Shown piece by piece: positions 2,186 through 25,220 of a stretch of DNA of 32,000 bases. The number at the start of each line of letters is the position of its first letter. Position 1 is the stretch's first letter. Origin of the DNA: Formosa sp. Hel1_33_131. Its GTDB lineage: Bacteria; Bacteroidota; Bacteroidia; Flavobacteriales; Flavobacteriaceae. The stretch is from NCBI RefSeq assembly GCF_001735745.1, contig NZ_CP017260.1:1200001-1232000 (forward strand). Reading direction: 5' to 3'. Both the position numbers and the translations under genes were made by a program. Below the pieces are notes generated by a model, which saw only the letters and a program-made list of their open reading frames with translations, did not search any database and was not told the origin of the DNA.

Positions 2186-4548
2186 TAACGTATGATCATT
2201 ATTTTTGAAACGTTCGTTTCAAGTGTATCAAAATCAGAAAAAAGCACTAAATATACTCCTGAAGCGACTGTATTATTTGCTAAATTTTTACCATTCCAAT
2301 AGGCGGTTCCGCCATCAATTTCTAAGTTGTAATTTTTATACCTTAAATTAACATTGGATTGTGCTTCGGCAACCAAATTACCTTCAATATCTGTTATTTT
2401 AATGTTGACATTATCACTTATATTTTTAATTTTAATTTTATCCTCTGCCATATTAAATCCAGGCCTTACAGGGTTCGGGTAGACATATACATCTTCGAGT
2501 GATTCTGCAGTACTTGAGCCGCCCGTAGTAAAAGCAACCAAGCCACGAGTGGTTCCAAAATAGACAATCCCATTTTCGGAATCTAACGCCATGGCATTTA
2601 CTCCATTTGACGGTAGTGGAGAGTTGTCTTTGGTGAAATGATGAATGGTTTTTTGCCCATCTGAAGACACGTAAAATACCCCCGCATCTGCTGTGGAAAT
2701 CCATTTATTGTTAGATCCATCCACGATGATATCTGAGATAAACTGTTGTGCTAATAGTTCTTGTGGAAGGCCGTCTTCAAGGATAATAATAGGTTCCGTT
2801 CTCACAACTTCTTCACTGAAAAAATTGGAAGTATTATACAGAACTCTGAGTCCTCTATAAGTGCCAATCCAGAGTACATTGTTTTTATCTAGAGCTAACG
2901 CTTTTACTGCGGCTGAAGGAAGGTTGGCAACATCTTTGTCGTTTATGTTTTTTAATAACATTCCATCTTCATTGAAACCAATCAAACCAGATTTATAACC
3001 TCCAATCCATTTGGTTCCATCAGATCCAATAGCAATATCGCTAAAGCCAAGTTCATTTCCTGAAGGGTCTGGTATGATTGGCGTAAAATCATAAGAAGTC
3101 CATTGATTCGTACTTGGATTAAGTTTTTTGAGAGGATTTTTTACTTTAGAGTTTAGTACCCACAAATTAGCTTCATTATCAAAAGAAGATCCTGAAATAC
3201 GAATGGTAATATAATTGGGGTTCGGTTCATATATTTGAGACTCTAACCCACTGTTTGCTGGATTTAAAAGTTCTATAGAGTCCTCCGATTTAATACTCAA
3301 CAAACCGCTATGAAAAGAGCTTATGAATACTTGACTTGGATCTAATGGATTTATAGCGATTTCATTTAGGTTGTAAACATCCGATTGAATTGTATTTTGA
3401 ATACTGTCATATCTAATATTTTCCCATTCAGTATTGTATAAACGGCTAACTCCTCTTTTCTGTAATGGGCTTGGGTTAAAGAATATTGTGTAGGCTCCAA
3501 AACTAACCCATAAATTATTATATCCGTATTCTAAAGAAAACACACTGTTTAAAAGTGGTCCTTGTGGGTGAATTTCTTCATATTCAGATGTTGATGTGGT
3601 CTTAGATCTTAGAACCCCAAAGTCAGTAGTTCCAATATAAATGACGTTATCAATTGTAAGAGCACTTGTAAAACTAGTTTGAAATTCAGGGTTGGTCGTA
3701 TAAGTGTCTATTATATTGAACCCAGTCGCATACTGATACAGTTTAGAGGGTGTTGTAACTAACAGGCTGTTATCTGACACTTTTAGGTCTGCAACAGATT
3801 GGGGATAAACAAATAAAGGATTCAAACTTGTTCCAACTATCTCAAAAATTCTATTACTAGAGTTCACTGTGTAAAGTTGACTGCCAAAGGCTGCCACGTT
3901 CGTGAAATTACCAGTAATCAGAGTTGTCCAAAATTGGAAATCTATTAAATTTGGATTGGATAAGCTCGCTTTTTTTATACCCATATTAGAACTACAGGCA
4001 GCATAAATTTCGTTATTAAAAATCGTGGTTTGATTGACTTTAACTTGACTCCCATTTGTACCAATATAATACGTATCCCCAAACTCTAAATCGGCTAAGT
4101 TATAAACTGAAATACCATAGTCTGTTGCAATATAAACAACCTCATCAATTTCATTAAAATGGTTAATTTTTTTTTGTGACGGTGGAATTGTTGTTTTGTT
4201 TATGATGTCAATAACTTTAAGCAATTCCTGATCGCTTTCTTTATAAACCTCAATTAAGCCGTTTTCATACCCAATTAATAATAGTTCGTATTGAGTGCTG
4301 TAATATATGGTTGAAATTAATTCCCCCGATAGCCCATTGATAGTTGTAATGGTACTAAGTTGATTACTAAGTGGGTCGTAGGAAAAAATTGCATTTTCAG
4401 AGGCTGCATAGAATTTAGTGTCTCCATAAACGACTTCTTTAATATCTAAATATGAGAAATGTCCAACCCAAGAAGTGTCATAGTTTTGACTCCAAGATGA
4501 TGGGACAAAAGCAAGAAGAAAAGTAATTATAAAAAAATATGTTTTCAC
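2185..4548 (-). CDS. PorZ-like two-propeller protein with T9SS C-terminal sorting domain
   Basis: 787 aa. Signal peptide (MKTYFFIITFLLAFVPSSWSQ), repeated beta-propeller-like segments along the whole length, and a C-terminal T9SS-type domain (VYVYPNPVRPG...GVYLVLFSD...SKIMIIR). The CDS itself is solid; the PorZ assignment is by architecture only. Confidence 0.6.
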   Translation of the reverse strand: MKTYFFIITFLLAFVPSSWSQNYDTSWVGHFSYLDIKEVVYGDTKFYAASENAIFSYDPLSNQLSTITTINGLSGELISTIYYSTQYELLLIGYENGLIEVYKESDQELLKVIDIINKTTIPPSQKKINHFNEIDEVVYIATDYGISVYNLADLEFGDTYYIGTNGSQVKVNQTTIFNNEIYAACSSNMGIKKASLSNPNLIDFQFWTTLITGNFTNVAAFGSQLYTVNSSNRIFEIVGTSLNPLFVYPQSVADLKVSDNSLLVTTPSKLYQYATGFNIIDTYTTNPEFQTSFTSALTIDNVIYIGTTDFGVLRSKTTSTSEYEEIHPQGPLLNSVFSLEYGYNNLWVSFGAYTIFFNPSPLQKRGVSRLYNTEWENIRYDSIQNTIQSDVYNLNEIAINPLDPSQVFISSFHSGLLSIKSEDSIELLNPANSGLESQIYEPNPNYITIRISGSSFDNEANLWVLNSKVKNPLKKLNPSTNQWTSYDFTPIIPDPSGNELGFSDIAIGSDGTKWIGGYKSGLIGFNEDGMLLKNINDKDVANLPSAAVKALALDKNNVLWIGTYRGLRVLYNTSNFFSEEVVRTEPIIILEDGLPQELLAQQFISDIIVDGSNNKWISTADAGVFYVSSDGQKTIHHFTKDNSPLPSNGVNAMALDSENGIVYFGTTRGLVAFTTGGSSTAESLEDVYVYPNPVRPGFNMAEDKIKIKNISDNVNIKITDIEGNLVAEAQSNVNLRYKNYNLEIDGGTAYWNGKNLANNTVASGVYLVLFSDFDTLETNVSKIMIIR

Positions 4549-6360: not shown

Positions 6361-6816
6361 TTATAAGCTATTTTTCATTGCTAAGATGTATCCAAGATGG
6401 ATCCCTTCATGAAATGTATTAAAACTGATCGCTTCCTCAACAGTCGAAAGCGTGACATTTAAAGAAGTCGTATAGGGCATGTAATTTTTAAAAAAATCAT
6501 TTTCGTAATCAATTTTGGTTTGCTCAACAGTCGAAAACAAAAGGGTTTTTATTTCCGCCAACTCTGTTTCTGTGGCTTCGTGGACGGTTTTAGTGTCTTT
6601 CCTGTAGGTTTTCACCAATTCAGAATCTACTAAAAAAGGTTGATTGGACAGCCCATAAACCAGCAATTGCTGTGTTACAATAGTGTGAGCAACGTTCCAA
6701 AAAATGGAATTTCGATACCCTTTAGGAACGGTATTGAGTTGAGCTAAAGAAAAATTTTCAATAAGTTTCAAGAGAAGTGTTCTGTTTTGCAGTGTAACGT
6801 TGTGATTCCAGTCCAT
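6361..6816 (-). CDS. DinB-family (DinB_2 / YfiT-like) protein
   Basis: 151 aa with conserved His positions in helix-bundle context (WNVAHTIVTQQ ... FHEGIHLGYILAM). Confidence 0.65.
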   Translation of the reverse strand: MDWNHNVTLQNRTLLLKLIENFSLAQLNTVPKGYRNSIFWNVAHTIVTQQLLVYGLSNQPFLVDSELVKTYRKDTKTVHEATETELAEIKTLLFSTVEQTKIDYENDFFKNYMPYTTSLNVTLSTVEEAISFNTFHEGIHLGYILAMKNSL

Positions 6817-15028: not shown

Positions 15029-15102
15029 GGTCCCATAGCTCAGTTGGTTAGAGCATCTGACTCATAATCAGAGGGTCCATGGTTCGAGCCCATGTGGGAC
15101 CA
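15029..15102 (+). tRNA. tRNA with anticodon CAT (elongator Met, or Ile2 if lysidine-modified)
   Basis: Hand-folded cloverleaf: acceptor ggtccca/tgggacc, D arm gctc-agttggtta-gagc, anticodon arm tctga-ctCATaa-tcaga, variable gggtc, T arm catgg-ttcgagc-ccatg, discriminator a. It lacks initiator features (no 3 GC pairs in the anticodon stem). The C4:G69 and C5:G68 pairs resemble tRNA-Ile2, so its identity is ambiguous. Confidence 0.9.
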
Positions 15103-15110
15103 CAAATAAA

Positions 15111-15134
15111 AGCAGCTCTAGGGCTGCTTTTTTA
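15111..15134 (+). terminator. Terminator-like hairpin after the tRNA, repeated in every array unit
   Basis: agcagc-tctagg-gctgct followed by tttttt. Copies at +391 steps (15502, 15893, 16284, 16675) and at 24154. Confidence 0.6.
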
Positions 15135-15150
15135 TATCAAAACCAGATCG

Positions 15151-15438
15151 ATGCCCTTTTGTTATATCATATACAGCCCTCAAATTGATTCGTATTACAC
15201 AGGATCGTGTGCTAATTTTGACCTCAGACTGAAAGCTCATAACTCCAAAAAATATGCTTCTTCTTACACCTCACAGTCTGACGACTGGGAACGCTTTTTG
15301 GTAATTCAAACAGAAACCAACAAACATGCTCTTCAAATCGAACGTAAAATTAAACAAATGAAAAGCCGTGTTTTCATTGAAAATTTGAAAAAATATCCTG
15401 AACTAGTAGATAAAATAAAAAAGCAAACGTGCATCTGA
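15151..15438 (+). CDS. GIY-YIG nuclease-family protein (YhbQ/URI-type), array copy 1
   Basis: 95 aa from MPFCYIIYSPQIDSYYTGSCANFDLRLKAHNS...HALQIERKIKQMKSR. The pattern (hydrophobic-Y strand, YTG, RLxxHN, ALxxExxxK) matches small GIY-YIG/URI domains. The 119-aa track version starts inside the tRNA T arm and is rejected. Confidence 0.75.
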   Translation: MPFCYIIYSPQIDSYYTGSCANFDLRLKAHNSKKYASSYTSQSDDWERFLVIQTETNKHALQIERKIKQMKSRVFIENLKKYPELVDKIKKQTCI

Positions 15439-15541
15439 CTCCCCCGATAACTATCGGGGCAGAGGGTCCATGGTTCGAGCCCATGTGGGACCACAAATAA
15501 AAGCAGCTCTAGGGCTGCTTTTTTATATCAAAACCAGATCG

Positions 15542-15829
15542 ATGCCCTTTTGTTATATCATATACAGCCCTCAAATTGATTCGTATTACACAGGATCGTG
15601 TGCTAATTTTGACCTCAGACTGAAAGCTCATAACTCCAAAAAATATGCTTCTTCTTACACCTCACAGTCTGACGACTGGGAACGCTTTTTGGTAATTCAA
15701 ACAGAAACCAACAAACATGCTCTTCAAATCGAACGTAAAATTAAACAAATGAAAAGCCGTGTTTTCATTGAAAATTTGAAAAAATATCCTGAACTAGTAG
15801 ATAAAATAAAAAAGCAAACGTGCATCTGA
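15542..15829 (+). CDS. GIY-YIG nuclease-family protein, array copy 2 (protein identical to copy 1)
   Basis: Same as copy 1. The nucleotide sequence appears identical by eye. Confidence 0.75.
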   Translation: MPFCYIIYSPQIDSYYTGSCANFDLRLKAHNSKKYASSYTSQSDDWERFLVIQTETNKHALQIERKIKQMKSRVFIENLKKYPELVDKIKKQTCI

Positions 15830-15932
15830 CTCCCCCGATAACTATCGGGGCAGAGGGTCCATGGTTCGAGCCCATGTGGGACCACAAATAAAAGCAGCTC
15901 TAGGGCTGCTTTTTTATATCAAAACCAGATCG

Positions 15933-16220
15933 ATGCCCTTTTGTTATATCATATACAGCCCTCAACTTGATTCGTATTACACAGGATCATGTGCTAATTT
16001 TGACCTCAGACTGAAAGCTCATAACTCCAAAAAATATGCTTCTTCTTACACCTCCAAGTCTGACGACTGGGAACGCTTTTTGGTAATTCAAACAGAAACC
16101 AACAAACATGCTCTTCAAATCGAACGTAAAATTAAACAAATGAAAAGCCGTGTTTTCATTGAAAATTTGAAAAAATATCCTGAACTAGTAGATAAAATAA
16201 AAAAGCAAACGTGCATCTGA
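15933..16220 (+). CDS. GIY-YIG nuclease-family protein, array copy 3
   Basis: Differs from copies 1-2 by I->L and Q->K plus one synonymous change. Confidence 0.75.
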   Translation: MPFCYIIYSPQLDSYYTGSCANFDLRLKAHNSKKYASSYTSKSDDWERFLVIQTETNKHALQIERKIKQMKSRVFIENLKKYPELVDKIKKQTCI

Positions 16221-16323
16221 CTCCCCCGATAACTATCGGGGCAGAGGGTCCTTGGTTCGAGCCCATGTGGGACCACAAATAAAAGCAGCTCTAGGGCTGC
16301 TTTTTTATATCAAAACCAGATCG

Positions 16324-16611
16324 ATGCCCTTTTGTTATATCATATACAGCCCTCAACTTGATTCGTATTACACAGGATCATGTGCTAACTTTGACTTAAG
16401 ACTGAAAGCTCATAACTCCAAAAAATACGTCGCTTCTTACACCTCCAAGTCTGACGACTGGAAACGCTTTTTGGTAATTCAAACAGAAACAAACAAACAT
16501 GCTCTTCGACTTGGAAGTAAAATTAAACAAATGAAAAGCCGAGTTTTTATTGAGAATTTGAAAAAATATCCAGAACTAGTAGATAAAATAAAAAAGCAAA
16601 CGAGCATCTGA
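16324..16611 (+). CDS. GIY-YIG nuclease-family protein, array copy 4 (probably inactive variant)
   Basis: Second subfamily (YVASYTSK, WKRF, HALRL). It reads RLGSK where every other copy has (I/L)ERK, so the conserved Glu of the AL..E..K motif is lost. Confidence 0.65.
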   Translation: MPFCYIIYSPQLDSYYTGSCANFDLRLKAHNSKKYVASYTSKSDDWKRFLVIQTETNKHALRLGSKIKQMKSRVFIENLKKYPELVDKIKKQTSI

Positions 16612-16714
16612 CTCCCCCGATAGCTATCGGGGCAGAGGGTCCATGGTTCGAGCCCATGTGGGACCACAAATAAAAGCAGCTCTAGGGCTGCTTTTTTATA
16701 TCAAAACCAGATCG

Positions 16715-17002
16715 ATGCCCTTTTGTTATATCATATACAGCCCTCAACTTGATTCGTATTACACAGGATCATGTGCTAATTTTGACCTCAGACTGAAAGC
16801 TCATAACTCCAAAAAATACGTCGCTTCTTACACCTCCAAGTCTGACGACTGGAAACGCTTTTTGGTAATTCAAACAGAAACAAACAAACATGCTCTTCGA
16901 CTCGAACGTAAAATTAAACAAATGAAAAGCCGAGTTTTTATTGAGAATTTGAAAAAATATCCTGAACTAGTAGATAAAATAAAAAAGCAAACGTGCATCT
17001 GA
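16715..17002 (+). CDS. GIY-YIG nuclease-family protein, array copy 5 (mosaic of both subfamilies)
   Basis: Subfamily-2 central part (YVAS, WKRF, RLERK) with subfamily-1 5' and 3' nucleotide markers (aattttgacctcaga, cctgaactag, acgtgcatc, gataactatc). Confidence 0.75.
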   Translation: MPFCYIIYSPQLDSYYTGSCANFDLRLKAHNSKKYVASYTSKSDDWKRFLVIQTETNKHALRLERKIKQMKSRVFIENLKKYPELVDKIKKQTCI

Positions 17003-17060
17003 CTCCCCCGATAACTATCGGGGCAGAGGGTCCTTGGTTCGAGCCCAAGTGGGACCACCC

Positions 17061-17093: not shown

Positions 17094-17286
17094 GCTCTCA
17101 CTCTCTAACCAGTCTCGAAAAGCTTCTAAAAGCCATCTCTTACTTAATTTCTAAACATCTCAAAGAACAGTCCAAATTTACTAAAAACTGACAGACTTTT
17201 GACAGACAATTCTGTTCTTTTCGCTTTTAGCCCTTTTCTCAACACGCTTTGTTCCAAAGCTACTGAGCTAATTGTTTCTTATGGGC

Positions 17287-18669
17287 TCAATCAACAACAC
17301 CTTCCTCAAAGCATTTTTTAAAGTATGCATTCATTTGAGTTTTTTCAAGCATATGGTCTGGTATTGAAACTAAACTTGTTTTAAACAGTTTGTCTAAATT
17401 ATGATGTTCTAGTATTACATCACTAAATAGTTTACGAACTCTATCTTCTAATAGGTTTTTTACAAGCAAAATATCCTTTTCAGTAGTTAAAATACAATCG
17501 TGTATGATTAATGCAAATTTATCATTTGGTATTTTTTTATACACCTCAACAAATATATCAGCTTCTGCACTTTGTCCTAGAAAACTCACTTTCTTGTAAC
17601 CCGAGTTCTTTTTAATTGCATTAACCCACATCATTACATTAGGGAATAACCTACTTAATTCTTTATTTGGTTGAGTTGGTTTATTTTCTGCATTAATTGC
17701 TGATAGAATACTCTTTTTAAGTTTCTCATAACTTAAACCTTTAAAGTATCCAGAGTTCTCTTGAACATATACATATATACCTCCACTTAAAAGAAGTTTA
17801 AGGCAATGGTTGTATTCCTTTTCAACGTGTTTGATGTTGTTCTTTTGAGCGTATTTTAACCATTCTAAAAAAATAATTGACGGTTGAGCTGAACACATAT
17901 CTACTTCCCAAATTAACTCATTAGACTTGGTTCTGATGCTTTCTCTAATTAGTTTTGGCATTGAGGCTATCACGTGATATATTCTACCAGATTTAGAAAT
18001 GGTAGGTGTATAATTTATGGAAGAGTTAAATAATACTTTTGGGTCTGTAACCTTGTTAAGTGCATAAAAGGAATTGTAAAACGCATCATATCGGTCAACT
18101 CTAAATTGGTTTACGGGTTCAGAGATGTCTACTTGACCATTTTTAGTTTCAACATAGATTGAACTTGGCAATATTCTTTCAACGTAATAAAACGGTTCTT
18201 CTACAACAAACAACTTTGATGTATTAACTAATATTTTCCTTAATACAGGATTTGAAAAAGTGTCTTCATAATTAAGTTCTTTTAAAGCATTTAATTTTGT
18301 GTTGAACTTTTTAGAATATACAATAGTATTTTTGACGCCTAACTTAATTGCTTTTGGGGTTAAAGCAAATGATTTTGAGAATTTACTTGTTGAATATTTA
18401 GGATTTTCTATTATGATGCCTAATCCAATCAAACATAATTGAATGTCTTTATATGTCCTATCGCCTATATATTTTTTTAATAATTGTGATTGTAGATTAA
18501 GGTGTTTACCATATGGTTCATTTAGTTTTATGTGTAACCTTATAATAGAAGATATAAGCCAATTACACCTGTCAAGCAATAACAGTTTTTTATCTCTTGT
18601 TTTTTGATTATTAAACTGTGTTGAGGTTATAAGTAAATCAGCAAAACCCTTTATGGTATATTGTTTCAT
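17287..18669 (-). CDS. Hypothetical protein with family-A (Pol I/T7-like) polymerase-like motifs
   Basis: 460 aa. By-eye motif series in the expected order: SGRIYHVIASMPKLIRES (cf. TGRLSS..PNLQNIP), EVDMCSAQPSIIFLEWL (cf. DYSQIELR motif A), KKSILSAINAE (cf. RRSAKAINFG motif B), FALIIHDCILT (cf. VHDE motif C). No search was run. Confidence 0.35.
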   Translation of the reverse strand: MKQYTIKGFADLLITSTQFNNQKTRDKKLLLLDRCNWLISSIIRLHIKLNEPYGKHLNLQSQLLKKYIGDRTYKDIQLCLIGLGIIIENPKYSTSKFSKSFALTPKAIKLGVKNTIVYSKKFNTKLNALKELNYEDTFSNPVLRKILVNTSKLFVVEEPFYYVERILPSSIYVETKNGQVDISEPVNQFRVDRYDAFYNSFYALNKVTDPKVLFNSSINYTPTISKSGRIYHVIASMPKLIRESIRTKSNELIWEVDMCSAQPSIIFLEWLKYAQKNNIKHVEKEYNHCLKLLLSGGIYVYVQENSGYFKGLSYEKLKKSILSAINAENKPTQPNKELSRLFPNVMMWVNAIKKNSGYKKVSFLGQSAEADIFVEVYKKIPNDKFALIIHDCILTTEKDILLVKNLLEDRVRKLFSDVILEHHNLDKLFKTSLVSIPDHMLEKTQMNAYFKKCFEEGVVD

Positions 18670-19035: not shown

Positions 19036-19737
19036 ATGAAAAAACTACTCTTAGTCTCTACTTTACTTGTCTTTGGCTTTAGTTTTTCCCAGACACTTAC
19101 AGTTGTTGAAGGTAGCATTATTACCATTGACGCTAATAGTTCAGTAACAATAGACGGACTTCAGTTAGCGCCAAGCACTACTTATACTATTGCTGGTCCC
19201 AATGCATTTGATCATACATCAACCCCAATTGTTGTGGGGGATAACTCCAGCATTGAAAGAGTTTATGAGTTGTCTGAAGAATTATCTGATTATTCAGGAC
19301 TAATTTCTTTTCGTTATTTAGATTCTGAACTCAATGGTATTGACGAAGCAGAATTAGTTCTAGAAGTATTGGATGCCAACGATGTTTGGAACAATGTTGC
19401 TCCAAACATTGATGATACAAACAACATATTGAGTTATGATTTCACAGAACTTGTTGGATTTAAAAAAATTACTGCAAGTGCTTCATCAGCAACACTCACC
19501 ATAAAAACAGAAACACTAAATGATATCGTACGTGTTTACCCAAATCCAACAACCGATAAAATAATTATAGTTTCTAATTTTGCGCAACACTCAACATTGT
19601 TCAATACAGCAGGTCAAAAAATATTAGAATCAAATGCCTTAGAACTGGATGTTACAGACTTACCAACAGGTGTTTATTTACTGAATTTACAAAACACACA
19701 AAACCAAATTTCAACATTTAAAATCATAAAACAATAA
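19036..19737 (+). CDS. Secreted protein with T9SS C-terminal sorting domain
   Basis: Signal peptide MKKLLLVSTLLVFGFSFSQ and C-terminal VRVYPNPTTDKIII...GVYLLNLQN...FKIIKQ. Confidence 0.75.
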   Translation: MKKLLLVSTLLVFGFSFSQTLTVVEGSIITIDANSSVTIDGLQLAPSTTYTIAGPNAFDHTSTPIVVGDNSSIERVYELSEELSDYSGLISFRYLDSELNGIDEAELVLEVLDANDVWNNVAPNIDDTNNILSYDFTELVGFKKITASASSATLTIKTETLNDIVRVYPNPTTDKIIIVSNFAQHSTLFNTAGQKILESNALELDVTDLPTGVYLLNLQNTQNQISTFKIIKQ

Positions 19738-19738
19738 G

Positions 19739-20599
19739 ATGAAAAAAATCACATTAATAGCACTTATGCTGTTCACAGCATTGGGTTACGCACAAGTAGG
19801 TATCAACACAAATAACCCTGATGCCTCTTCGGCATTAGAGATTGAATCCACTACAGGTGGAATTTTAATTCCAAGACTCACAGAGACCCAGCGTGATGCG
19901 ATTAGCTCTCCAGCAACTGGATTAATGATATACCAAACAGATGGTACAGTAGGTTTTTACTATTACAATGGCAGTAGTTGGGCTAACGTTGGTTATACAG
20001 AAGCATTGGTTTCAGCCAATACAGATGTAGCAGCTAACACATTAAAAGTAGGATATACAGAAGCATTAGTTTCTGCAAATACAGCTGTAGCAGCAAATAC
20101 CGCTAAGGTTGGTGTTACAACACACGCCATTGGTGATAGCTTTGGTGGAGGTATTGTGTTTTTCGTGTATGATGGCGGACAACATGGCTTAATTGCTGCT
20201 ACTGCCGACCAAAGTGCAGGTATCCGTTGGTATGGAGGTTCATATACTTATACTCGTGCCAGAGCAGATGGTATTGGTGCTGGTTTAAAAAATACCGCCA
20301 TCATTATTGCTAACCAAGGCCCGGTTGACGGTAGTGCTTTTGCGGCAACTGTTTGCAACGAGTATTCAGTGACTGTAGATGGTGTTACTTATGGCGACTG
20401 GTATTTACCCTCTAAACACGAGTTAGACTTATTGTACATAGAAAGAGATACGGTTGGCGGTTTTACAACCAATTACTACTGGAGTTCTACGGAGGGCGAT
20501 AACATAGTCGTGTGGGTACAGGTTTTCGGCAATGGTGCTCAGAACAACGACGGTAAGGGCAGCACGGCCAATAGCGTGCGTGCAGTTCGAGCTTTTTAG
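19739..20599 (+). CDS. DUF1566/C-type-lectin-fold protein, candidate DGR target A
   Basis: Signal peptide, conserved N-domain (AQVGINTNNPDASSALE...[21 protein letters not shown]), two 20-aa repeats, and C-terminal WYLPSKHEL...YYWSSTE...WVQVFGNG...SVRAVRAF. Confidence 0.8.
   Translation: MKKITLIALMLFTALGYAQVGINTNNPDASSALEIESTTGGILIPRLTETQRDAISSPATGLMIYQTDGTVGFYYYNGSSWANVGYTEALVSANTDVAANTLKVGYTEALVSANTAVAANTAKVGVTTHAIGDSFGGGIVFFVYDGGQHGLIAATADQSAGIRWYGGSYTYTRARADGIGAGLKNTAIIIANQGPVDGSAFAATVCNEYSVTVDGVTYGDWYLPSKHELDLLYIERDTVGGFTTNYYWSSTEGDNIVVWVQVFGNGAQNNDGKGSTANSVRAVRAF
19991..20110 (+). repeat. Two tandem 60-bp (20-aa) repeats inside target A
   Basis: GYTEALVSANTDVAANTLKV / GYTEALVSANTAVAANTAKV, absent from paralog B. 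Confidence 0.9.
20474..20572 (+). other. DGR-type variable region (VR-A)
   Basis: 99 bp aligned codon-for-codon with 21833-21931, with 24 differing positions. 22 of the 24 fall at codon positions 1-2. Setting each differing position to A yields an inferred template with nine AAC and two AAT codons. Confidence 0.65.
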
Positions 20600-20630
20600 T
20601 TATTTAATTATTTATCAATTTAATTTAATG

Positions 20631-20642
20631 CCGCGTAAGCGG
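20631..20642 (+). promoter_or_regulatory. GC stem with GNRA-type loop downstream of VR-A (DGR hairpin-like)
   Basis: ccgc-GTAA-gcgg lies within a segment (20573-20667) that is nearly identical to the segment after VR-B. Confidence 0.45.
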
Positions 20643-20719
20643 ACGATTTTTATTTTTTAAAAATGGTAATAAAACAATTACTAAAAGATCAAACACACTA
20701 TAAAAAGCGAAACACACCA

Positions 20720-20896
20720 ATGAAACAATTATTCACATTTTTAGCGGCAGTATTATTAACTGCAACAACGTATGCCCAAGTGGAAAGCCCTTCACAGAAA
20801 GAGACACTATCTACAGTAGGTTTGAAGACTGGAGTTTACATCTTAAAAGTACAGGCAGAAAACATTGTTTTCACAAAAAAATTAGTCATAGAATAA
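20720..20896 (+). pseudogene. Deletion remnant: signal peptide fused directly to the end of a T9SS sorting domain
   Basis: [21 protein letters not shown], near-identical at the nucleotide level to the start of the 21116 gene, is followed after a short linker by GVYILKVQAENIVFTKKLVIE. There is no mature domain between them. Confidence 0.5.
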
Positions 20897-20905
20897 GCAT
20901 TCCAC

Positions 20906-21070
20906 ATGAAAAAAACAGAAAACACACCTAACGGTACCGATGATATCAGTAGAAAAGAGGCCATAAAGAAAATGGGAAAGTATGCTGCACTCACAGCGAT
21001 GGGAACATTTATGATTCTAAACCCTAAAAAGGCACAAGCTGCATCTGTACCTCCAAGTCCTGGTTGGTAA
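20906..21070 (+). CDS. Unannotated 54-aa ORF (Tat-signal-like / leader-like small protein)
   Basis: ATG at 20906, double stop taataa at 21068. MKKTENTPNGTDDISRKEAIKKMGKYAALTAMGTFMILNPKKAQAASVPPSPGW. Below the ORF-track size cutoff. Confidence 0.35.
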   Translation: MKKTENTPNGTDDISRKEAIKKMGKYAALTAMGTFMILNPKKAQAASVPPSPGW

Positions 21071-21115
21071 TAAAAGAAACTAAAAAAAGAAAAACAACTA
21101 TTAAAAAACACACCA

Positions 21116-21958
21116 ATGAAAAAATTATTCACATTTTTAGCAGCAGTATTATTAACTGCAACAACGTATGCCCAAGTGGGTATAGGCACAACAACTCCAG
21201 ACGCTTCGTCTGCTTTAGATATTACCTCTACCACAAAGGGGTTATTAATGCCAAGAATGACAGCAGCCCAGCGTGATGCGATTAGTCCAGCAGCCACAGG
21301 ATTAATGATATACCAAACAGATGGTACAGCAGGTTTTTACTATTACAATGGTAGTAGTTGGGAGGGGTATTATTCTAAAAATGAGGTAGACACATTGATT
21401 GCCAATCTTCAAACTCAGATTACTCAGATTACTAATAATGCAATCAGTGTAGGTGATTTTCTCCAAGGCGGCGTTGTTTTTCACCTATTTGAAGAAGGAG
21501 AAACAGGTTATGTTGCAGGACAAATCCACGGTTTGATTGCAGCAGTAGCAGACCAGAGTTCTGGTATACGATGGTATAATGGCAGTTATGATACTACAGG
21601 GGCAACAGGGACTGTTATAGGCACAGGAGCTACCAATACAACGACAATTATAAGTGAACAAGGCCCAACCGAAACATCTTATGCAGCAGGCCTGGCAAGG
21701 GCATATACTGGAGGAACAACACATACAGATTGGTTTTTACCCTCAAAAGATGAGTTAAACAAAATGTATTTAAATAAGGCAACTATAAACACTACAGCTG
21801 CAGCAAATAGTGGTAGTGATTTTTCTGCTAATAACTACTGGAGTTCTACGGAGTACGATAGCAATACCGCGTGGGTACAGTATTTCGGCAATGGTGGTCA
21901 GGGCTACTACGATAAGGTCAACACCTACGTTAGCGTGCGTGCAGTTCGAGCTTTTTAG
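21116..21958 (+). CDS. DUF1566/C-type-lectin-fold protein, candidate DGR target B
   Basis: Same architecture as target A but without the 20-aa repeats. C-terminal WFLPSKDEL...[41 protein letters not shown]. Confidence 0.8.
21833..21931 (+). other. DGR-type variable region (VR-B)
   Basis: See VR-A. Nucleotide similarity between the paralogs starts abruptly at the VR and continues past the stop codon. Confidence 0.65.
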
Positions 21959-21988
21959 TTATTTAATTATTTATCAATTTAATTAGTG

Positions 21989-22000
21989 CCGCGTAAGCGG
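21989..22000 (+). promoter_or_regulatory. GC stem with GNRA-type loop downstream of VR-B
   Basis: The same ccgcGTAAgcgg element as at 20631, located between the target stop and the Avd-like start. Confidence 0.45.
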
Positions 22001-22020
22001 ACGATTTTTATTTTTTAAAA

Positions 22021-22209
22021 ATGGCATTACACACAGCGCTTCCTGTATATAGGGATACATATAAATTGGTATTAGAAATTTTTGTAAGTACCAAAAATTT
22101 CCCTAAAGAATACAAGTATAGTTTGGGTAGAGATATGGAGCGTGATGTGCTGGTTTTAATGCGCTGTATATATCGTGCGCTGTTAAAACGTAACTTTAGT
22201 TTCCAGTAA
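22021..22209 (+). pseudogene. Truncated four-helix-bundle (Avd / 23S rRNA-IVS-like) protein
   Basis: MALHTALPVYRDTYKLVLEIFVSTKNFPKEYKYSLGRDMERDVLVLMRCIYRA matches the first half of Avd-type proteins. It then diverges and stops at 62 aa, about half the usual length. Confidence 0.55.
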
Positions 22210-22340: not shown

Positions 22341-22361
22341 TGGTACCTCCAGGAATCGAAC
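22341..22361 (-). other. Isolated 3'-terminal fragment of a different tRNA (T loop to discriminator); att-core remnant
   Basis: The reverse complement gttcgattcctggaggtacca reads as T loop, 3' T stem cctgg, acceptor aggtacc and discriminator a. The matching 5' T-stem strand is absent, so this is not a gene. It lies about 160 bp upstream of xis. Confidence 0.6.
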
Positions 22362-22523
22362 AGAAGTTTATTTATCAACATAATTCGTGCACTAATATTT
22401 TACAAACTTCTCTAACACCAATCAACTTAAATTAATCTAAATGCCGCATAAAAACTGGGCTTATTTTAAATTTGGGGATTGATTTTAAAAATAATTTTAT
22501 GTATACTTTTAAAAAAGAAAAGG

Positions 22524-22742
22524 ATGGATAAACGATTAATCACAATTGGAGAAGCTGCTACTTACTTAGGTATTTCCGTTTCACATTTATATAAAATGTG
22601 TTCTATGAGGAGTATCGATTTTTATAAGATTGGGAGGTCTAATAAGTTTTTAATTGCAGATTTAAATGAATTTATATCAAAAAATAAAATCAGCAAAAAG
22701 AAAGAATCAATGGTTAAGTTAAAACTTTCAATAAAAATATGA
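22524..22742 (+). CDS. Helix-turn-helix excisionase/AlpA-like DNA-binding protein
   Basis: 72 aa from MDKRLITIGEAATYLGISVSHLYKMC...FYKIGRSNKFLIADLNEFI. The stop overlaps the integrase start. Confidence 0.7.
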   Translation: MDKRLITIGEAATYLGISVSHLYKMCSMRSIDFYKIGRSNKFLIADLNEFISKNKISKKKESMVKLKLSIKI

Positions 22743-24013
22743 CAACAATAAAACAAGTATTTGATTATAGAACACCGAGAGTAAATGGAGAAATTCCTGT
22801 ACGATTGCGGGTGACACACAACCGAAAAACAACCCACATTTCATTGAATGCGTCTTTAACTGAAGTTCAAATAAAAAAGATAGAACAAGGTAAGGTCGAT
22901 AAAGAATTATCTCATTTCATAAAGGAATTGAATGATCTTACTTATAACGCTCAAAAAGTAGCTGCAAAATTAGAACCATTTTCAATAAGTGAATTGAAAC
23001 GTCAACTTTCAAATTCCAATACTTCAAAAAACAATAAAGATCATTTACTCGTAGATATCATTCAACTGAAAATAAAGAAACTTGAAGAAAATCAGCAATA
23101 TAAATCTAAGGGTCATTATAAGACACTTTTAAACATGATTACAACCTTTGATTCATCTCTACTATTAAAGGATGTAGATCAAGATTTTTTACACGATTTT
23201 GAACAATTTTACATAGACGGAAGAATCGAAAAAGATGGAGAAAGTCAATTAGAAAATTACTATAATACCTTAAGTATTTATTTTAGAAACCTTAAAGCGG
23301 TTATAAATTTAGGTGTAGATCACAAAATGTTAGATCATACCTACGAGTTTCCTTTTGGGAAGAACAAATACATCATTAAAACATATAATACAGAAAAAGA
23401 AATCTTTTCTGTGGATCAGGTTAATAGTTTAATGACTTTTAACTCTTTTGATACAAAATACCAAGAGAACGCACATGACCATTGGAAAGTCTGTTTTTTG
23501 TGCAACGGCAGTAATATGTCAGATGTTTTACAATTCAAATGGACCGATATAGATGATGATATTATTTCATTTGTGAGACAGAAAACTGAGAATAGAACAA
23601 AGACCGTCAGGAAACTCTCTATCCCAATTATAAAACCTTTAAGAGAATTAATAGACAGAATAGGAAATAGAGAAAGTGAATACATCTTTGGAGGATTTAG
23701 AACCCCACCCAAGAAGACAACAATACAAAATAAGGTTTCTAAAATGTGTAAAGGATATAACAAACACCTAAAAGTGATAGGAGTTAAAATTGGATTACCC
23801 ATTCCTTTGACCATATCCACCTCAAGACATAGTTACGGGAATTACCTTGCTAAAAATGGAGTTCCATTAGAAAGGATTGCAGAAATGATGGGTCACAAAG
23901 ATAAACAGCGGTTTACAACATATCATTACATCGGTAGTTTGGATAAAAAGATATTATTCGAAACGAAACAAACAAACATGCTCTTCGACTCGAACGTAAA
24001 ATTAAACAAATGA
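22739..24013 (+). CDS. Tyrosine-type site-specific integrase; the last ~19 codons, including the stop, are read from array-unit sequence
   Basis: 424 aa with the catalytic region ...SRHSYGNYLAKNGVPLERIAEMMGHKDKQRFTTYHYIG. From about 23957 the ORF runs into GIY-YIG unit sequence in another frame (…ETKQTNMLFDSNVKLNK*). Confidence 0.8.
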   Translation: MTTIKQVFDYRTPRVNGEIPVRLRVTHNRKTTHISLNASLTEVQIKKIEQGKVDKELSHFIKELNDLTYNAQKVAAKLEPFSISELKRQLSNSNTSKNNKDHLLVDIIQLKIKKLEENQQYKSKGHYKTLLNMITTFDSSLLLKDVDQDFLHDFEQFYIDGRIEKDGESQLENYYNTLSIYFRNLKAVINLGVDHKMLDHTYEFPFGKNKYIIKTYNTEKEIFSVDQVNSLMTFNSFDTKYQENAHDHWKVCFLCNGSNMSDVLQFKWTDIDDDIISFVRQKTENRTKTVRKLSIPIIKPLRELIDRIGNRESEYIFGGFRTPPKKTTIQNKVSKMCKGYNKHLKVIGVKIGLPIPLTISTSRHSYGNYLAKNGVPLERIAEMMGHKDKQRFTTYHYIGSLDKKILFETKQTNMLFDSNVKLNK

Positions 24014-24536
24014 AAAGCCGAGTTTTTATTGAGAATTTGAAAAAATATCCAGAACTAGTAGATAAAATAAAAAAGCAAACGAGCATCTGACTCCCCCGAT
24101 AGCTATCGGGGCAGAGGGTCCTTGGTTCGAGCCCAAGTGGGACCACAAATAAAAGCAGCTCTAGGGCTGCTTTTTTATATCAAAACCAGATCGATGCCCT
24201 TTTGTTATATCATATACAGCCCTCAACTTGATTCGTATTACACAGGATCATGTGCTAACTTTGACTTAAGACTGAAAGCTCATAACTCCAAAAAATACGT
24301 CGCTTCTTACACCTCCAAGTCTGACGACTGGAAACGCTTTTTGGTAATTCAAACAGAAACAAACAAACATGCTCTTCGACTCGAACGTAAAATTAAACAA
24401 ATGAAAAGCCGAGTTTTTATTGAGAATTTGAAAAAATATCCAGAACTAGTAGATAAAATAAAAAAGCAAACGAGCATCTGACTCCCCCGATAGCTATCGG
24501 GGCAGAGGGTCCTTGGTTCGAGCCCAAGTGGGACCA
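23957..24536 (+). repeat. Second part of the 391-bp array: 3' ~40% of one unit plus one complete unit and the terminal tRNA 3' half
   Basis: tRNA 3'-half copies at 24112-24145 and 24503-24536, both the cttgg/ccaag T-stem variant. The unit sequence belongs to subfamily 2. Confidence 0.9.
24194..24481 (+). CDS. GIY-YIG nuclease-family protein, array copy 6
   Basis: 95 aa, subfamily 2 (YVASYTSK, RLERK, C-terminal QTSI). Confidence 0.75.
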   Translation: MPFCYIIYSPQLDSYYTGSCANFDLRLKAHNSKKYVASYTSKSDDWKRFLVIQTETNKHALRLERKIKQMKSRVFIENLKKYPELVDKIKKQTSI

Positions 24537-24786
24537 CCCTGAAAACCCTTATTATCTTGTCATCAATAATAAAATGAATCCCGTAAGGAAAGACTTTTAA
24601 ATGTGCGATCCGTATTGTTTTATACCTGTACGGATACTGTAAAGGATTTTCTTTAATAGCGTCTATTTTATTCCAAAACTCATTATGAAATCTGTCAGCC
24701 AATTCTACTGATATTTTTTCATACTGCCCAATAGTGTTGTTGAAGTTTGCTAAAGAGGCTTCTTCAAACTTTATAGTGTGTTTCAT
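24349..24786 (-). CDS. RelE/ParE-family toxin whose native 3' end is replaced by array sequence
   Basis: Residues 1-84 (24786 down to about 24535), MKHTIKFEEASL...FPYGIHFIIDDKIIRVFRV, fit the Bacteroidota RelE/ParE pattern. The remaining ~60 aa (VPLGLEPRTLCPDSYRG...) are the antisense reading of the tRNA half and the GIY-YIG unit. Confidence 0.6.
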   Translation of the reverse strand: MKHTIKFEEASLANFNNTIGQYEKISVELADRFHNEFWNKIDAIKENPLQYPYRYKTIRIAHLKVFPYGIHFIIDDKIIRVFRVVPLGLEPRTLCPDSYRGSQMLVCFFILSTSSGYFFKFSIKTRLFICLILRSSRRACLFVSV

Positions 24787-25034: not shown

Positions 25035-25220
25035 GTTCGTTTGTTTTACTGCTAATATACGTATAAATTACGGAATCAAAATTTGCTGCTTCAAAAAAAC
25101 TCCACCAAATATTGTGAATTTCTTGGCACTCATTTGGTGCTAATGCTTTTCCCAACACGGGTTGTTCCAAAGCTACTGAACTAATTATTTATTATATTTG
25201 AAGTATAAACCAATTTGATT

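Follow-up and report, generated by a model that had tools for sequence, protein, structure and literature searches.

Probable fossil variable repeats of a diversity-generating retroelement, with a deleted local cassette, in two DUF1566 genes of Formosa sp. Hel1_33_131

Are the 3′ ends of two neighbouring genes still being rewritten by a retroelement, or do they only preserve its past work? This question is raised by a 32,000-nt stretch of the genome of the marine flavobacterium Formosa sp. Hel1_33_131 (contig NZ_CP017260.1, positions 1,200,001 to 1,232,000; hereafter the window, with coordinates counted from its first letter), in which two genes for DUF1566 proteins end in sequences that resemble the variable repeats (VRs) of diversity-generating retroelements (DGRs), where a reverse transcriptase (RT) copies a template repeat (TR) into the VR. 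An earlier sequence-only reading had proposed that both genes are, or recently were, diversified from a single TR. Our analysis upholds the DGR origin of both repeats, which we regard as almost certain, and favours "were" over "are" because the cassette is deleted at the locus and both alleles are invariant across assemblies. We therefore read VR1 and VR2 as fossil VRs of a known DUF1566/CLec2-type DGR whose local cassette was deleted and which no longer diversifies them, with a probability of about 0.72; that the two repeats are inactive at present is, taken by itself, probable. The two genes and their repeats are as follows.

19739-20599, + strand: target gene 1, 286 aa, from the list of open reading frames (ORFs)
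21116-21958, + strand: target gene 2, 280 aa, with a signal peptide, a PTL_trimer-type N-terminal domain and a C-terminal DUF1566/Lcl_C domain
20474-20596, + strand: VR1, with a diversified part (20474-20572) and an invariant G+C-rich end (20573-20596) resembling the initiation of mutagenic homing (IMH) site
21833-21955, + strand: VR2, with a diversified part (21833-21931) and an invariant IMH-like end (21932-21955)

Both target ORFs are intact. Gene 1 encodes a signal peptide, a PTL_trimer-type N-terminal domain, VGYTEALVSANT repeats and a C-terminal DUF1566/Lcl_C domain; its residues 202-284 score 30.7 bits against Pfam Lcl_C, under the cut-off of 34.9, the C-terminal part of NCBIfam adhesin_Lcl matches it at 80 bits, and its homologues combine PF26696 with PF07603. 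Gene 2 exceeds the same Pfam cut-off with 48.7 bits, and its residues 194-280 match a solved structure by sequence (PDB 8q4e_A, E = 2.5e-5). These profile searches agree with the family assignment of the sequence-only reading, and both genes appear, as judged from their sequences, to have the feature of the DUF1566/Lcl_C (CLec2) target class, namely a VR at the end of the C-terminal domain.

Ungapped comparison of 20474-20572 with 21833-21931 showed that 24 of the 99 nt differ, 22 of them at codon positions 1-2 and two at position 3, and that the 150 nt 5′ of both repeats share 33% identity in the same register. From position 100 onward, the two sequences show no difference up to and including the stop codons (20597-20599 and 21956-21958) and for approximately 30 nt more, and after a 1-nt indel identity continues through an A+T-rich spacer, GCCGCGTAAGCGGAC and a T-run to AAAAATGG (20666 and 22024, respectively). 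The 99-bp alignment with its differences, the upstream divergence and, that one indel aside, the identity reaching approximately 65 bp past the stop had all been described correctly in the sequence-only reading. Its count of 16 variable sites with an A in one copy and eight without became 15 and 9 of the 24 upon recounting, and its repeat limits were right at the start and short at the end, where the match to the template runs 24 nt further, to 20596 and 21955; these additional nucleotides form the invariant G+C-rich end AGCGTGCGTGCAGTTCGAGCTTTT. A repeat search found no third copy, VR or TR, in the window, which holds only these two copies, both coding VRs.

We searched for the template in relatives by scanning one genome per prokaryotic species with the invariant 20-mer ACTACTGGAGTTCTACGGAG, which yielded 77 loci (designated by L numbers), mostly in Flavobacteriaceae (Polaribacter, Psychroserpens, Patiriisocius, Formosa and others) or Chlorobiaceae. 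About fifteen of the 77 have an adenine-rich, non-coding copy of the repeat. L073, L013, L041, L046, L025 and L023 share the order of a protein with a type IX secretion system (T9SS) tail, a DUF1566 target with its VR, a 119-aa avd, a TR and an RT of approximately 400 aa, and L077 has the same order as far as the RT start. Relatives thus carry complete target, avd, TR and RT cassettes. The consensus TR is identical in three genera, Flavobacterium, Psychroserpens and Polaribacter, and reads A at 21 of the 24 variable sites, in line with the proposal that these sites are templated by adenine; the three sites with another template base are 20474/21833 (T), 20506 (T) and 20511 (C). For each VR, the changes concentrate on the adenines of this consensus (Fisher p ~2e-6).

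Ahead of the G+C-rich end, both VRs contain an additional codon (AAT AGC) that the three-genus TRs lack. We therefore looked in metagenome contigs for the template end that this predicts, AGCGTGCGTGCAGTTCGAGCTTTTCAAAC, and found it in two of them, L084 and L083. L084 (6.3 kb) is a complete DGR consisting of a DUF1566 target of 695 aa (87% identity to gene 1 over the last 550 nt), an avd (bAvd, 65 bits), a 123-nt TR and an RT (RVT_1, 66 bits) containing IGNLTSQ, which we take to be a DGR-type motif. The two VRs compare with the L084 TR as follows.

VR1: 22 of 50 template adenines changed; 2 of 72 other bases changed (T>A at 20506 and C>T at 20511)
VR2: 21 of 50 template adenines changed; 0 of 72 other bases changed

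Summed over both VRs, 43 of the 45 changes sit on template adenines, so that the TR-to-VR mismatches have the position characteristic of a DGR, as measured against the heterologous TR of L084. The template that the sequence-only reading had inferred by setting every variable site to A agrees with the L084 TR at 89 of 99 positions, and the ten misses comprise the three sites with a non-A template base plus seven adenines at which both VRs carry the same non-A base. Sharing at seven template adenines, with 5.1 expected (P = 0.2), fits two independent homing events from one template, and on this count descent of VR1 and VR2 from one already diversified VR was ruled out. We infer that a TR of the L084 type was the actual donor. 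At the level of the family, 131 of 165 homologue tails of the two common lengths are unique, with variability high at the AAC/AAT codons of the TR and near zero at codons with one adenine at most.

Two related contigs hold unusual TR regions. L083 (340-420) retains avd and an L084-type TR, but its RT gene gives way to other sequence immediately past the start. In L104, the TR position (3581-3700) is bounded by TR-type flanks and holds a mutagenised, VR-like sequence, which may be an assembly chimera or a product of homing into the TR. The 20-mer had no match in the viral contig collection, and a phage origin was set aside on that result.

The sequences immediately downstream of the two VRs bear on the question of an acceptor site.

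20597-20666, + strand: 3′ flank of VR1, with the stop codon, an A+T-rich spacer, the hairpin GCCGCGTAAGCGGAC (20630-20644), a T-run and ATGG
21956-22020, + strand: 3′ flank of VR2, with the stop codon, an A+T-rich spacer, the hairpin GCCGCGTAAGCGGAC (21988-22002) and a T-run

The invariant end of the VRs equals the end of the L084 TR, and the sequences part directly past it, with TAG... in the VRs and CAAAC... in the TR. An invariant end followed by divergence of VR and TR matches the description of IMH and IMH* for the prototype DGR. The VR2 flank is identical to the flank in L084 and L063, and the last 4 nt of the VR1 flank, ATGG, correspond to the avd start in relatives. A CCGC-GTAA-GCGG motif lies 33 nt 3′ of the invariant end and is kept after most related VRs, with compensatory stem variants in L029 (GTCGC...GCGAC) and L036 (CCGCC...GGCGG). 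The hairpin stem has only 4-5 bp (4 bp with a GTAA loop and z = -0.8 after VR1), its energy is indistinguishable from that of shuffled sequence (z = -0.8 to -1.6), and a terminator scan made no call at the hairpin. Because the thermodynamics are not significant, we dropped the hairpin as a demonstrable structure and retain its sequence conservation, which makes it a candidate recognition element.

The region between gene 2 and the integrase downstream shows what became of the cassette.

22021-22179, + strand: avd stub, codons 1-53; the ORF reads on to a stop at 22209 (62 aa)
22180-22202, no strand: deletion junction, from alignment with L063, L015, L032, L046 and L084
22203-22361, - strand: region downstream of tRNA-Phe(GAA), with the terminator hairpin; 22341-22361 are the final 21 nt of the tRNA
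22479-24013, + strand: excisionase (22479-22742) and tyrosine integrase (22739-24013), with matches to HTH_17/excisionase, Phage_int_SAM_5 and Phage_integrase

The ORF that begins 62 nt past gene 2 matches positions 7-51 of 107 in bAvd and 1-48 of 104 in NCBIfam DivGenRetAVD (E ~1e-4), shares 94% identity with residues 1-53 of the full-length Avd of L073 (119 aa) and then diverges. A complete DGR requires an intact avd beside the target or TR, and the window retains codons 1-53 of 119 only. In L046, the target is followed by avd, TR, RT, a 55-aa minus-strand ORF, a terminator and tRNA-Phe(GAA); this arrangement with intact avd is found in L046 and in L096-L099. Because homology with L046 resumes just before the terminator, approximately 2.0 kb comprising avd codons 54-119, the TR, the RT and the 55-aa ORF have been replaced by the 23 nt at 22180-22202. 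The junction is identical in the window, L063, L015 and L032, which points to a single, older deletion event. The other components of a complete DGR, a TR and a DGR-clade RT (I/LGxxxSQ), are present in relatives and absent from the window, where no RT domain was found by Pfam searches in the 30 scanned ORFs, which include all non-nested ORFs of at least 100 aa. The chromosome of a Polaribacter metagenome-assembled genome with the same junction (OX044355.1) gave no TR-type match to the 20-mer, which is shared by all TRs of this analysis.

The locus was altered further. The segment 22203-22361 has homologous counterparts in L015 and L046, both with an intact tRNA-Phe according to ARAGORN; in the window, none was called. 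An excisionase/integrase element at the 3′ end of the tRNA displaces the remainder of it and belongs to the context of the DGR rather than to its parts. Homology of related loci to the window ends at 22355 (L063 and L085) or 22361 (L087), and the splitting of tRNA-Phe by this element is later than the deletion. Because the flank after VR1 is kept only to the ATGG of avd and then gives way to a mosaic ORF, the locus has been rearranged more than once.

avd 5′ stubs of 18-72 codons follow many cassette-remote VRs in Flavobacteriaceae and also in Chlorobiaceae (L002, L007, L025 at 6515-6634, L029, L034, L035, L036, L040, L043, L047 and L066), so that target 3′ modules have seemingly been duplicated, or cassettes deleted, together with the avd start. 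The complete genome of Patiriisocius sp. Uisw_017 has one full cassette (L025) along with stub-followed VRs in L002 and L045a that show 0-1 non-adenine mismatches to its TR (for L002, 16 of 48 adenines and 0 of 72 other bases changed); the VRs of L036 and L045b each show six non-adenine mismatches to the same TR. Because stubs stand behind apparently serviceable remote VRs in Patiriisocius, we dropped the avd stub as proof of decay.

A DGR in action is expected to leave VRs that are hypervariable between strains. At the level of assembly consensus, this is not seen for VR1 and VR2. VR2 is nucleotide-identical in four metagenome assemblies (L085, L086, L087 and L088, of which L085 and L086 are near-duplicates), and in L063 it is identical but for two small indels, in a contig with indel errors. 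Downstream of this allele, the loci fall into three different contexts. Six of the eight members of its 90% protein cluster have the same VR on varying N-termini, and the 41-residue VR2 tail also occurs on gene bodies that are 72-95% identical nearby. The VR1-type protein P0124 (P numbers designate proteins) is residue-identical on 17 contigs, and the six places listed for it are from six samples. L089, the one locus read at the DNA level, equals the window VR1, including both non-adenine changes, except for a single template AAC codon (GCC at 20567-20568 in the window, AAC at 9464-9465 in L089); there, the VR is followed by a shorter, different avd stub, and neither TR nor RT is present.

As a control, we used the RT protein P0370, of which identical copies are encoded by 24 contigs or more, some of them sharing their sample with L086. 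The P0370 contigs carry an intact cassette at the same tRNA-Phe/coaX site and come from the same sample series as the cassette-less contigs, which belong to metagenomes ERZ10646654, ERZ10646659, ERZ10646689, JGI 3300025637 and 3300025880. Eight cleanly aligned VRs of P0370 strains are all distinct, seven of them mutually unrelated, with 18-25 adenine-site changes and 0-2 others each; hypervariability is therefore seen in cassette-bearing sister strains. Together with the invariance of VR1 and VR2, this argues that VR variation accompanies the cassette and that loci which have lost it keep fixed VRs. The TR end of the P0370 cassette lacks the AGC codon and reads GCTGTTCGGGC in place of GCAGTTCGAGC. 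The identical VR2 of L063 was dropped as evidence for freezing, since the kilobase nearest the VR shows 99-100% identity and the contig contains indel errors; the comparison of several assemblies with the cassette-bearing control takes its place in the argument.

The tandem 217-aa targets of L097 (1624 and 2393) have VR copies that differ at two sites only, both of them adenine sites. Because re-homing would lose the other ~20 mutated sites, the differences in L089 and L097 are best explained as point mutations or very short conversion tracts.

The history that best accounts for these observations would run as follows. The segments 20474-20596 and 21833-21955 would be DGR VRs at the C-termini of two DUF1566/Lcl_C (CLec2-type) secreted or surface proteins, produced by mutagenic retrohoming in which the RT copies the RNA of a TR of approximately 123 nt and misincorporates opposite about half of the template adenines, whereupon the resulting cDNA replaces the VR. 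The acceptor site would be marked by the G+C-rich end AGCGTGCGTGCAGTTCGAGC and possibly also by the hairpin 33 nt downstream, the template would have been of the L084 type, and VR1 and VR2 would be its separate products. The cassette between gene 2 and tRNA-Phe would later have lost approximately 2 kb, that is, avd codons 54-119, the TR and the RT, leaving orphan VRs that are presumably now inherited as fixed alleles and exchanged by ordinary recombination. We also infer that no cassette acts on them from elsewhere in this genome.

How large a part such exchange plays is a matter of its own. Present variation may arise mainly when homologous recombination exchanges entire pre-made VR modules among paralogues and strains, with the invariant YWSSTE on one side and VRAVRAF plus the 3′ flank on the other serving as crossover sites, so that switching of ready-made VRs outlives the DGR. 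We hold this to be possible, though only tentatively. The VR2 allele occurs on P0002, P0007, P0012 and P0042, in which the VR is 100% identical and the adjacent 120 aa are 72-95% identical; P0003, P0005, P0006 and P0009 likewise join one VR to differing N-termini, one VR is common to P0123, P0125, P0127 and P0128 in the same manner, and L015 and L032 have the window's junction with other VRs or gene bodies. However, the pattern comes from a handful of assembled contigs, from which no rate can be estimated, and assembly chimeras across near-identical repeats could mimic it. Swapping would, moreover, complement a DGR origin and not replace it.

Several points weigh against the fossil reading itself. 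Assembly consensus hides minority variants within a sample, several of the comparison contigs are long-read assemblies with indel errors, and the L084 TR stems from another contig and not from this genome, of which our data span 32 kb, so that a cassette could lie elsewhere. Because the stub-followed VRs of Uisw_017 still match their TR, a stub does not prove inactivity. VR2 shows no non-adenine change and both IMH-like ends and flanks are intact, which means either that the freeze is recent or that the sites are usable, and the adenine-site difference between VR1 of the window and that of L089 could reflect adenine mutagenesis that took place once the alleles had separated.

Some of these points favour a second account, which we consider unlikely, in which an intact avd-TR-RT cassette elsewhere in the genome or on a co-resident mobile element still diversifies the VRs, and the avd stub is a scar of target-module duplication only. 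Remote targets are established for chromosomal DGRs (Wu et al. 2018, PMC5758913). Stubs of 18-72 codons behind many VRs, the match of L002 and L045a to a genomic TR, the 0 of 72 non-adenine changes of VR2, the IMH-like end shared with the L084 TR and the restriction of the VR1-L089 difference to two template-adenine sites all suit this account. It has more difficulty with the VR2 and P0124 alleles, which are constant across contigs, whereas cassette-bearing sisters differ at nearly every VR. The near-variants of VR2 (GIDGQ and GFDGQ) include a change at a template G, and the two non-adenine changes of VR1 are shared with L089 and are therefore old. Finally, the TR of the co-occurring cassette has a different end without the AGC codon, and OX044355.1, with the same junction, lacks a TR-type match. 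On this evidence, we prefer the fossil reading.

A further scenario, which we regard as doubtful, treats the orphan VRs, with their intact IMH-like ends and flanks, as latent acceptor sites that are re-diversified in trans whenever a mobile island with an L084-type cassette arrives, their alleles being shuffled among paralogues by homologous recombination between visits. If this were true, intermittent, horizontally transferred retroelements, and not a resident one, would maintain DGR diversity in marine Flavobacteriaceae as a resource of the community. That no retroelement was involved at all, the paralogous 3′ ends having been homogenised by gene conversion and diverged by positive selection at ligand-contacting codons, is highly improbable, because although such selection would also produce a bias to codon positions 1-2 and the paralogues do recombine (P0012 joins the gene 1 N-terminus to the gene 2 C-terminus, and L015 is mosaic across the VR-avd region), it leaves unexplained the 43 of 45 changes on template adenines, the avd fragment and the full avd-TR-RT cassette at the same site in homologous loci.

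Among known systems, the locus falls closest to the category 'd' DGRs, which, in the classification of Wu et al. (2018, PMC5758913), have DUF1566, DUF823 or Fib_succ_major targets with CLec2 VRs, are exemplified by LdtA of Legionella pneumophila and include short DUF1566 proteins as about half of their targets. As in that category, the window targets have a signal peptide and end in DUF1566/Lcl_C with the VR at the extreme C-terminus, and relatives of the locus have an avd-TR-RT set with an AAC/AAT-rich TR. Unlike its members, the window has an avd stub and neither TR nor RT, belongs to a marine Flavobacteriaceae host, has a target operon led by a T9SS-sorted protein and is known here from sequence alone. 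The avd 5′ stubs behind remote VRs find no mention in the passages of Wu et al. 2018 (PMC5758913) consulted here.

The experimental prototype, the DGR of Bordetella phage BPP-1 (mtd, avd, TR and brt), shares with our locus the adenine-specific transfer from TR to VR, the G+C-rich invariant 3′ end of the VR and the position of avd between target and TR, the last as seen in the relatives. Stems of 7-10 bp with GRNA loops have been described 4-34 bp after VRs (Guo et al. 2011, PMC3240598); the candidate counterpart here is an inverted repeat with a 4-nt loop within that distance, but its stem has 4-5 bp and its loop is GTAA or GCAA. The target is also of the DUF1566/CLec2 type and not Mtd, and the system is chromosomal or island-borne instead of phage-borne. 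The Treponema denticola DGR, with seven non-adjacent targets and documented action in trans (Wu et al. 2018, PMC5758913), resembles ours in having several paralogous targets per TR and target 3′ modules duplicated around the genome; it differs in that the window VRs have no assignable TR or RT and their alleles are invariant between strains. In mechanism and target class, the locus is textbook DGR biology, a real but ordinary relic of a known system.

For annotation, the gain is that two DUF1566 genes can be labelled as former DGR targets and the 62-aa ORF after gene 2 as an avd pseudogene. The tRNA-Phe/coaX site exists with and without the cassette in one metagenome series, which offers a natural contrast for how fast DGR diversity decays and which variants persist once the diversifier is lost.

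Three further ORFs accompany the targets.

19036-19737, + strand: T9SS-sorted protein, 233 aa, directly 5′ of gene 1, with Por_Secre_tail at 41.5 bits
20663-20896, + strand: mosaic 77-aa ORF, with a copy of the gene 2 signal peptide and the end of a T9SS sorting domain
20906-21070, + strand: 54-aa ORF with the sequence MKKTENTPNGTDDISRKEAIKKMGKYAALTAMGTFMILNPKKAQAASVPPSPGW, which precedes gene-2-type targets in related islands

A T9SS-tailed protein stands ahead of the target in all intact relatives. Within the mosaic ORF, 20710-20783 is a 97% copy of the ribosome-binding and signal-peptide region of gene 2 (21106-21179; repeat D7), and its last ~38 residues correspond to positions 37-75 of 75 in Por_Secre_tail. 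This ORF marks past recombination or rearrangement between target modules. The 54-aa ORF is 98-100% identical directly 5′ of gene-2-type targets in L085, L087, L089 and L091 and matched no family in Pfam and NCBIfam profile searches.

The surroundings have features of their own. A tRNA-Met(CAT) is followed by five tandem 391-nt units (15029-17058), each consisting of a 119-aa GIY-YIG ORF and a duplicate of the 3′-terminal 35 nt of the tRNA, and a further 1.5 GIY-YIG units at 23956-24537 overlap the 3′ end of the integrase ORF. The 391-nt units look like serial tandem integrations of a very small GIY-YIG element into the tRNA 3′ end. On the minus strand, a 460-aa ORF (17287-18669) without a family match in profile searches resembles a 314-aa protein encoded ahead of the HTH_17 gene in L089 and L091, both DGR-bearing islands (25% identity over 210 aa), and may therefore serve the replication or mobility of the island. 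A 50-nt direct repeat, 88% identical between its two copies (17233-17282 and 25146-25195) and containing the tRNA-like stretch ACTGAGCTAA, brackets a 7.9-kb island with the DGR targets, the integrase and the extra GIY-YIG units, and its copies could be the attachment sites of that island.

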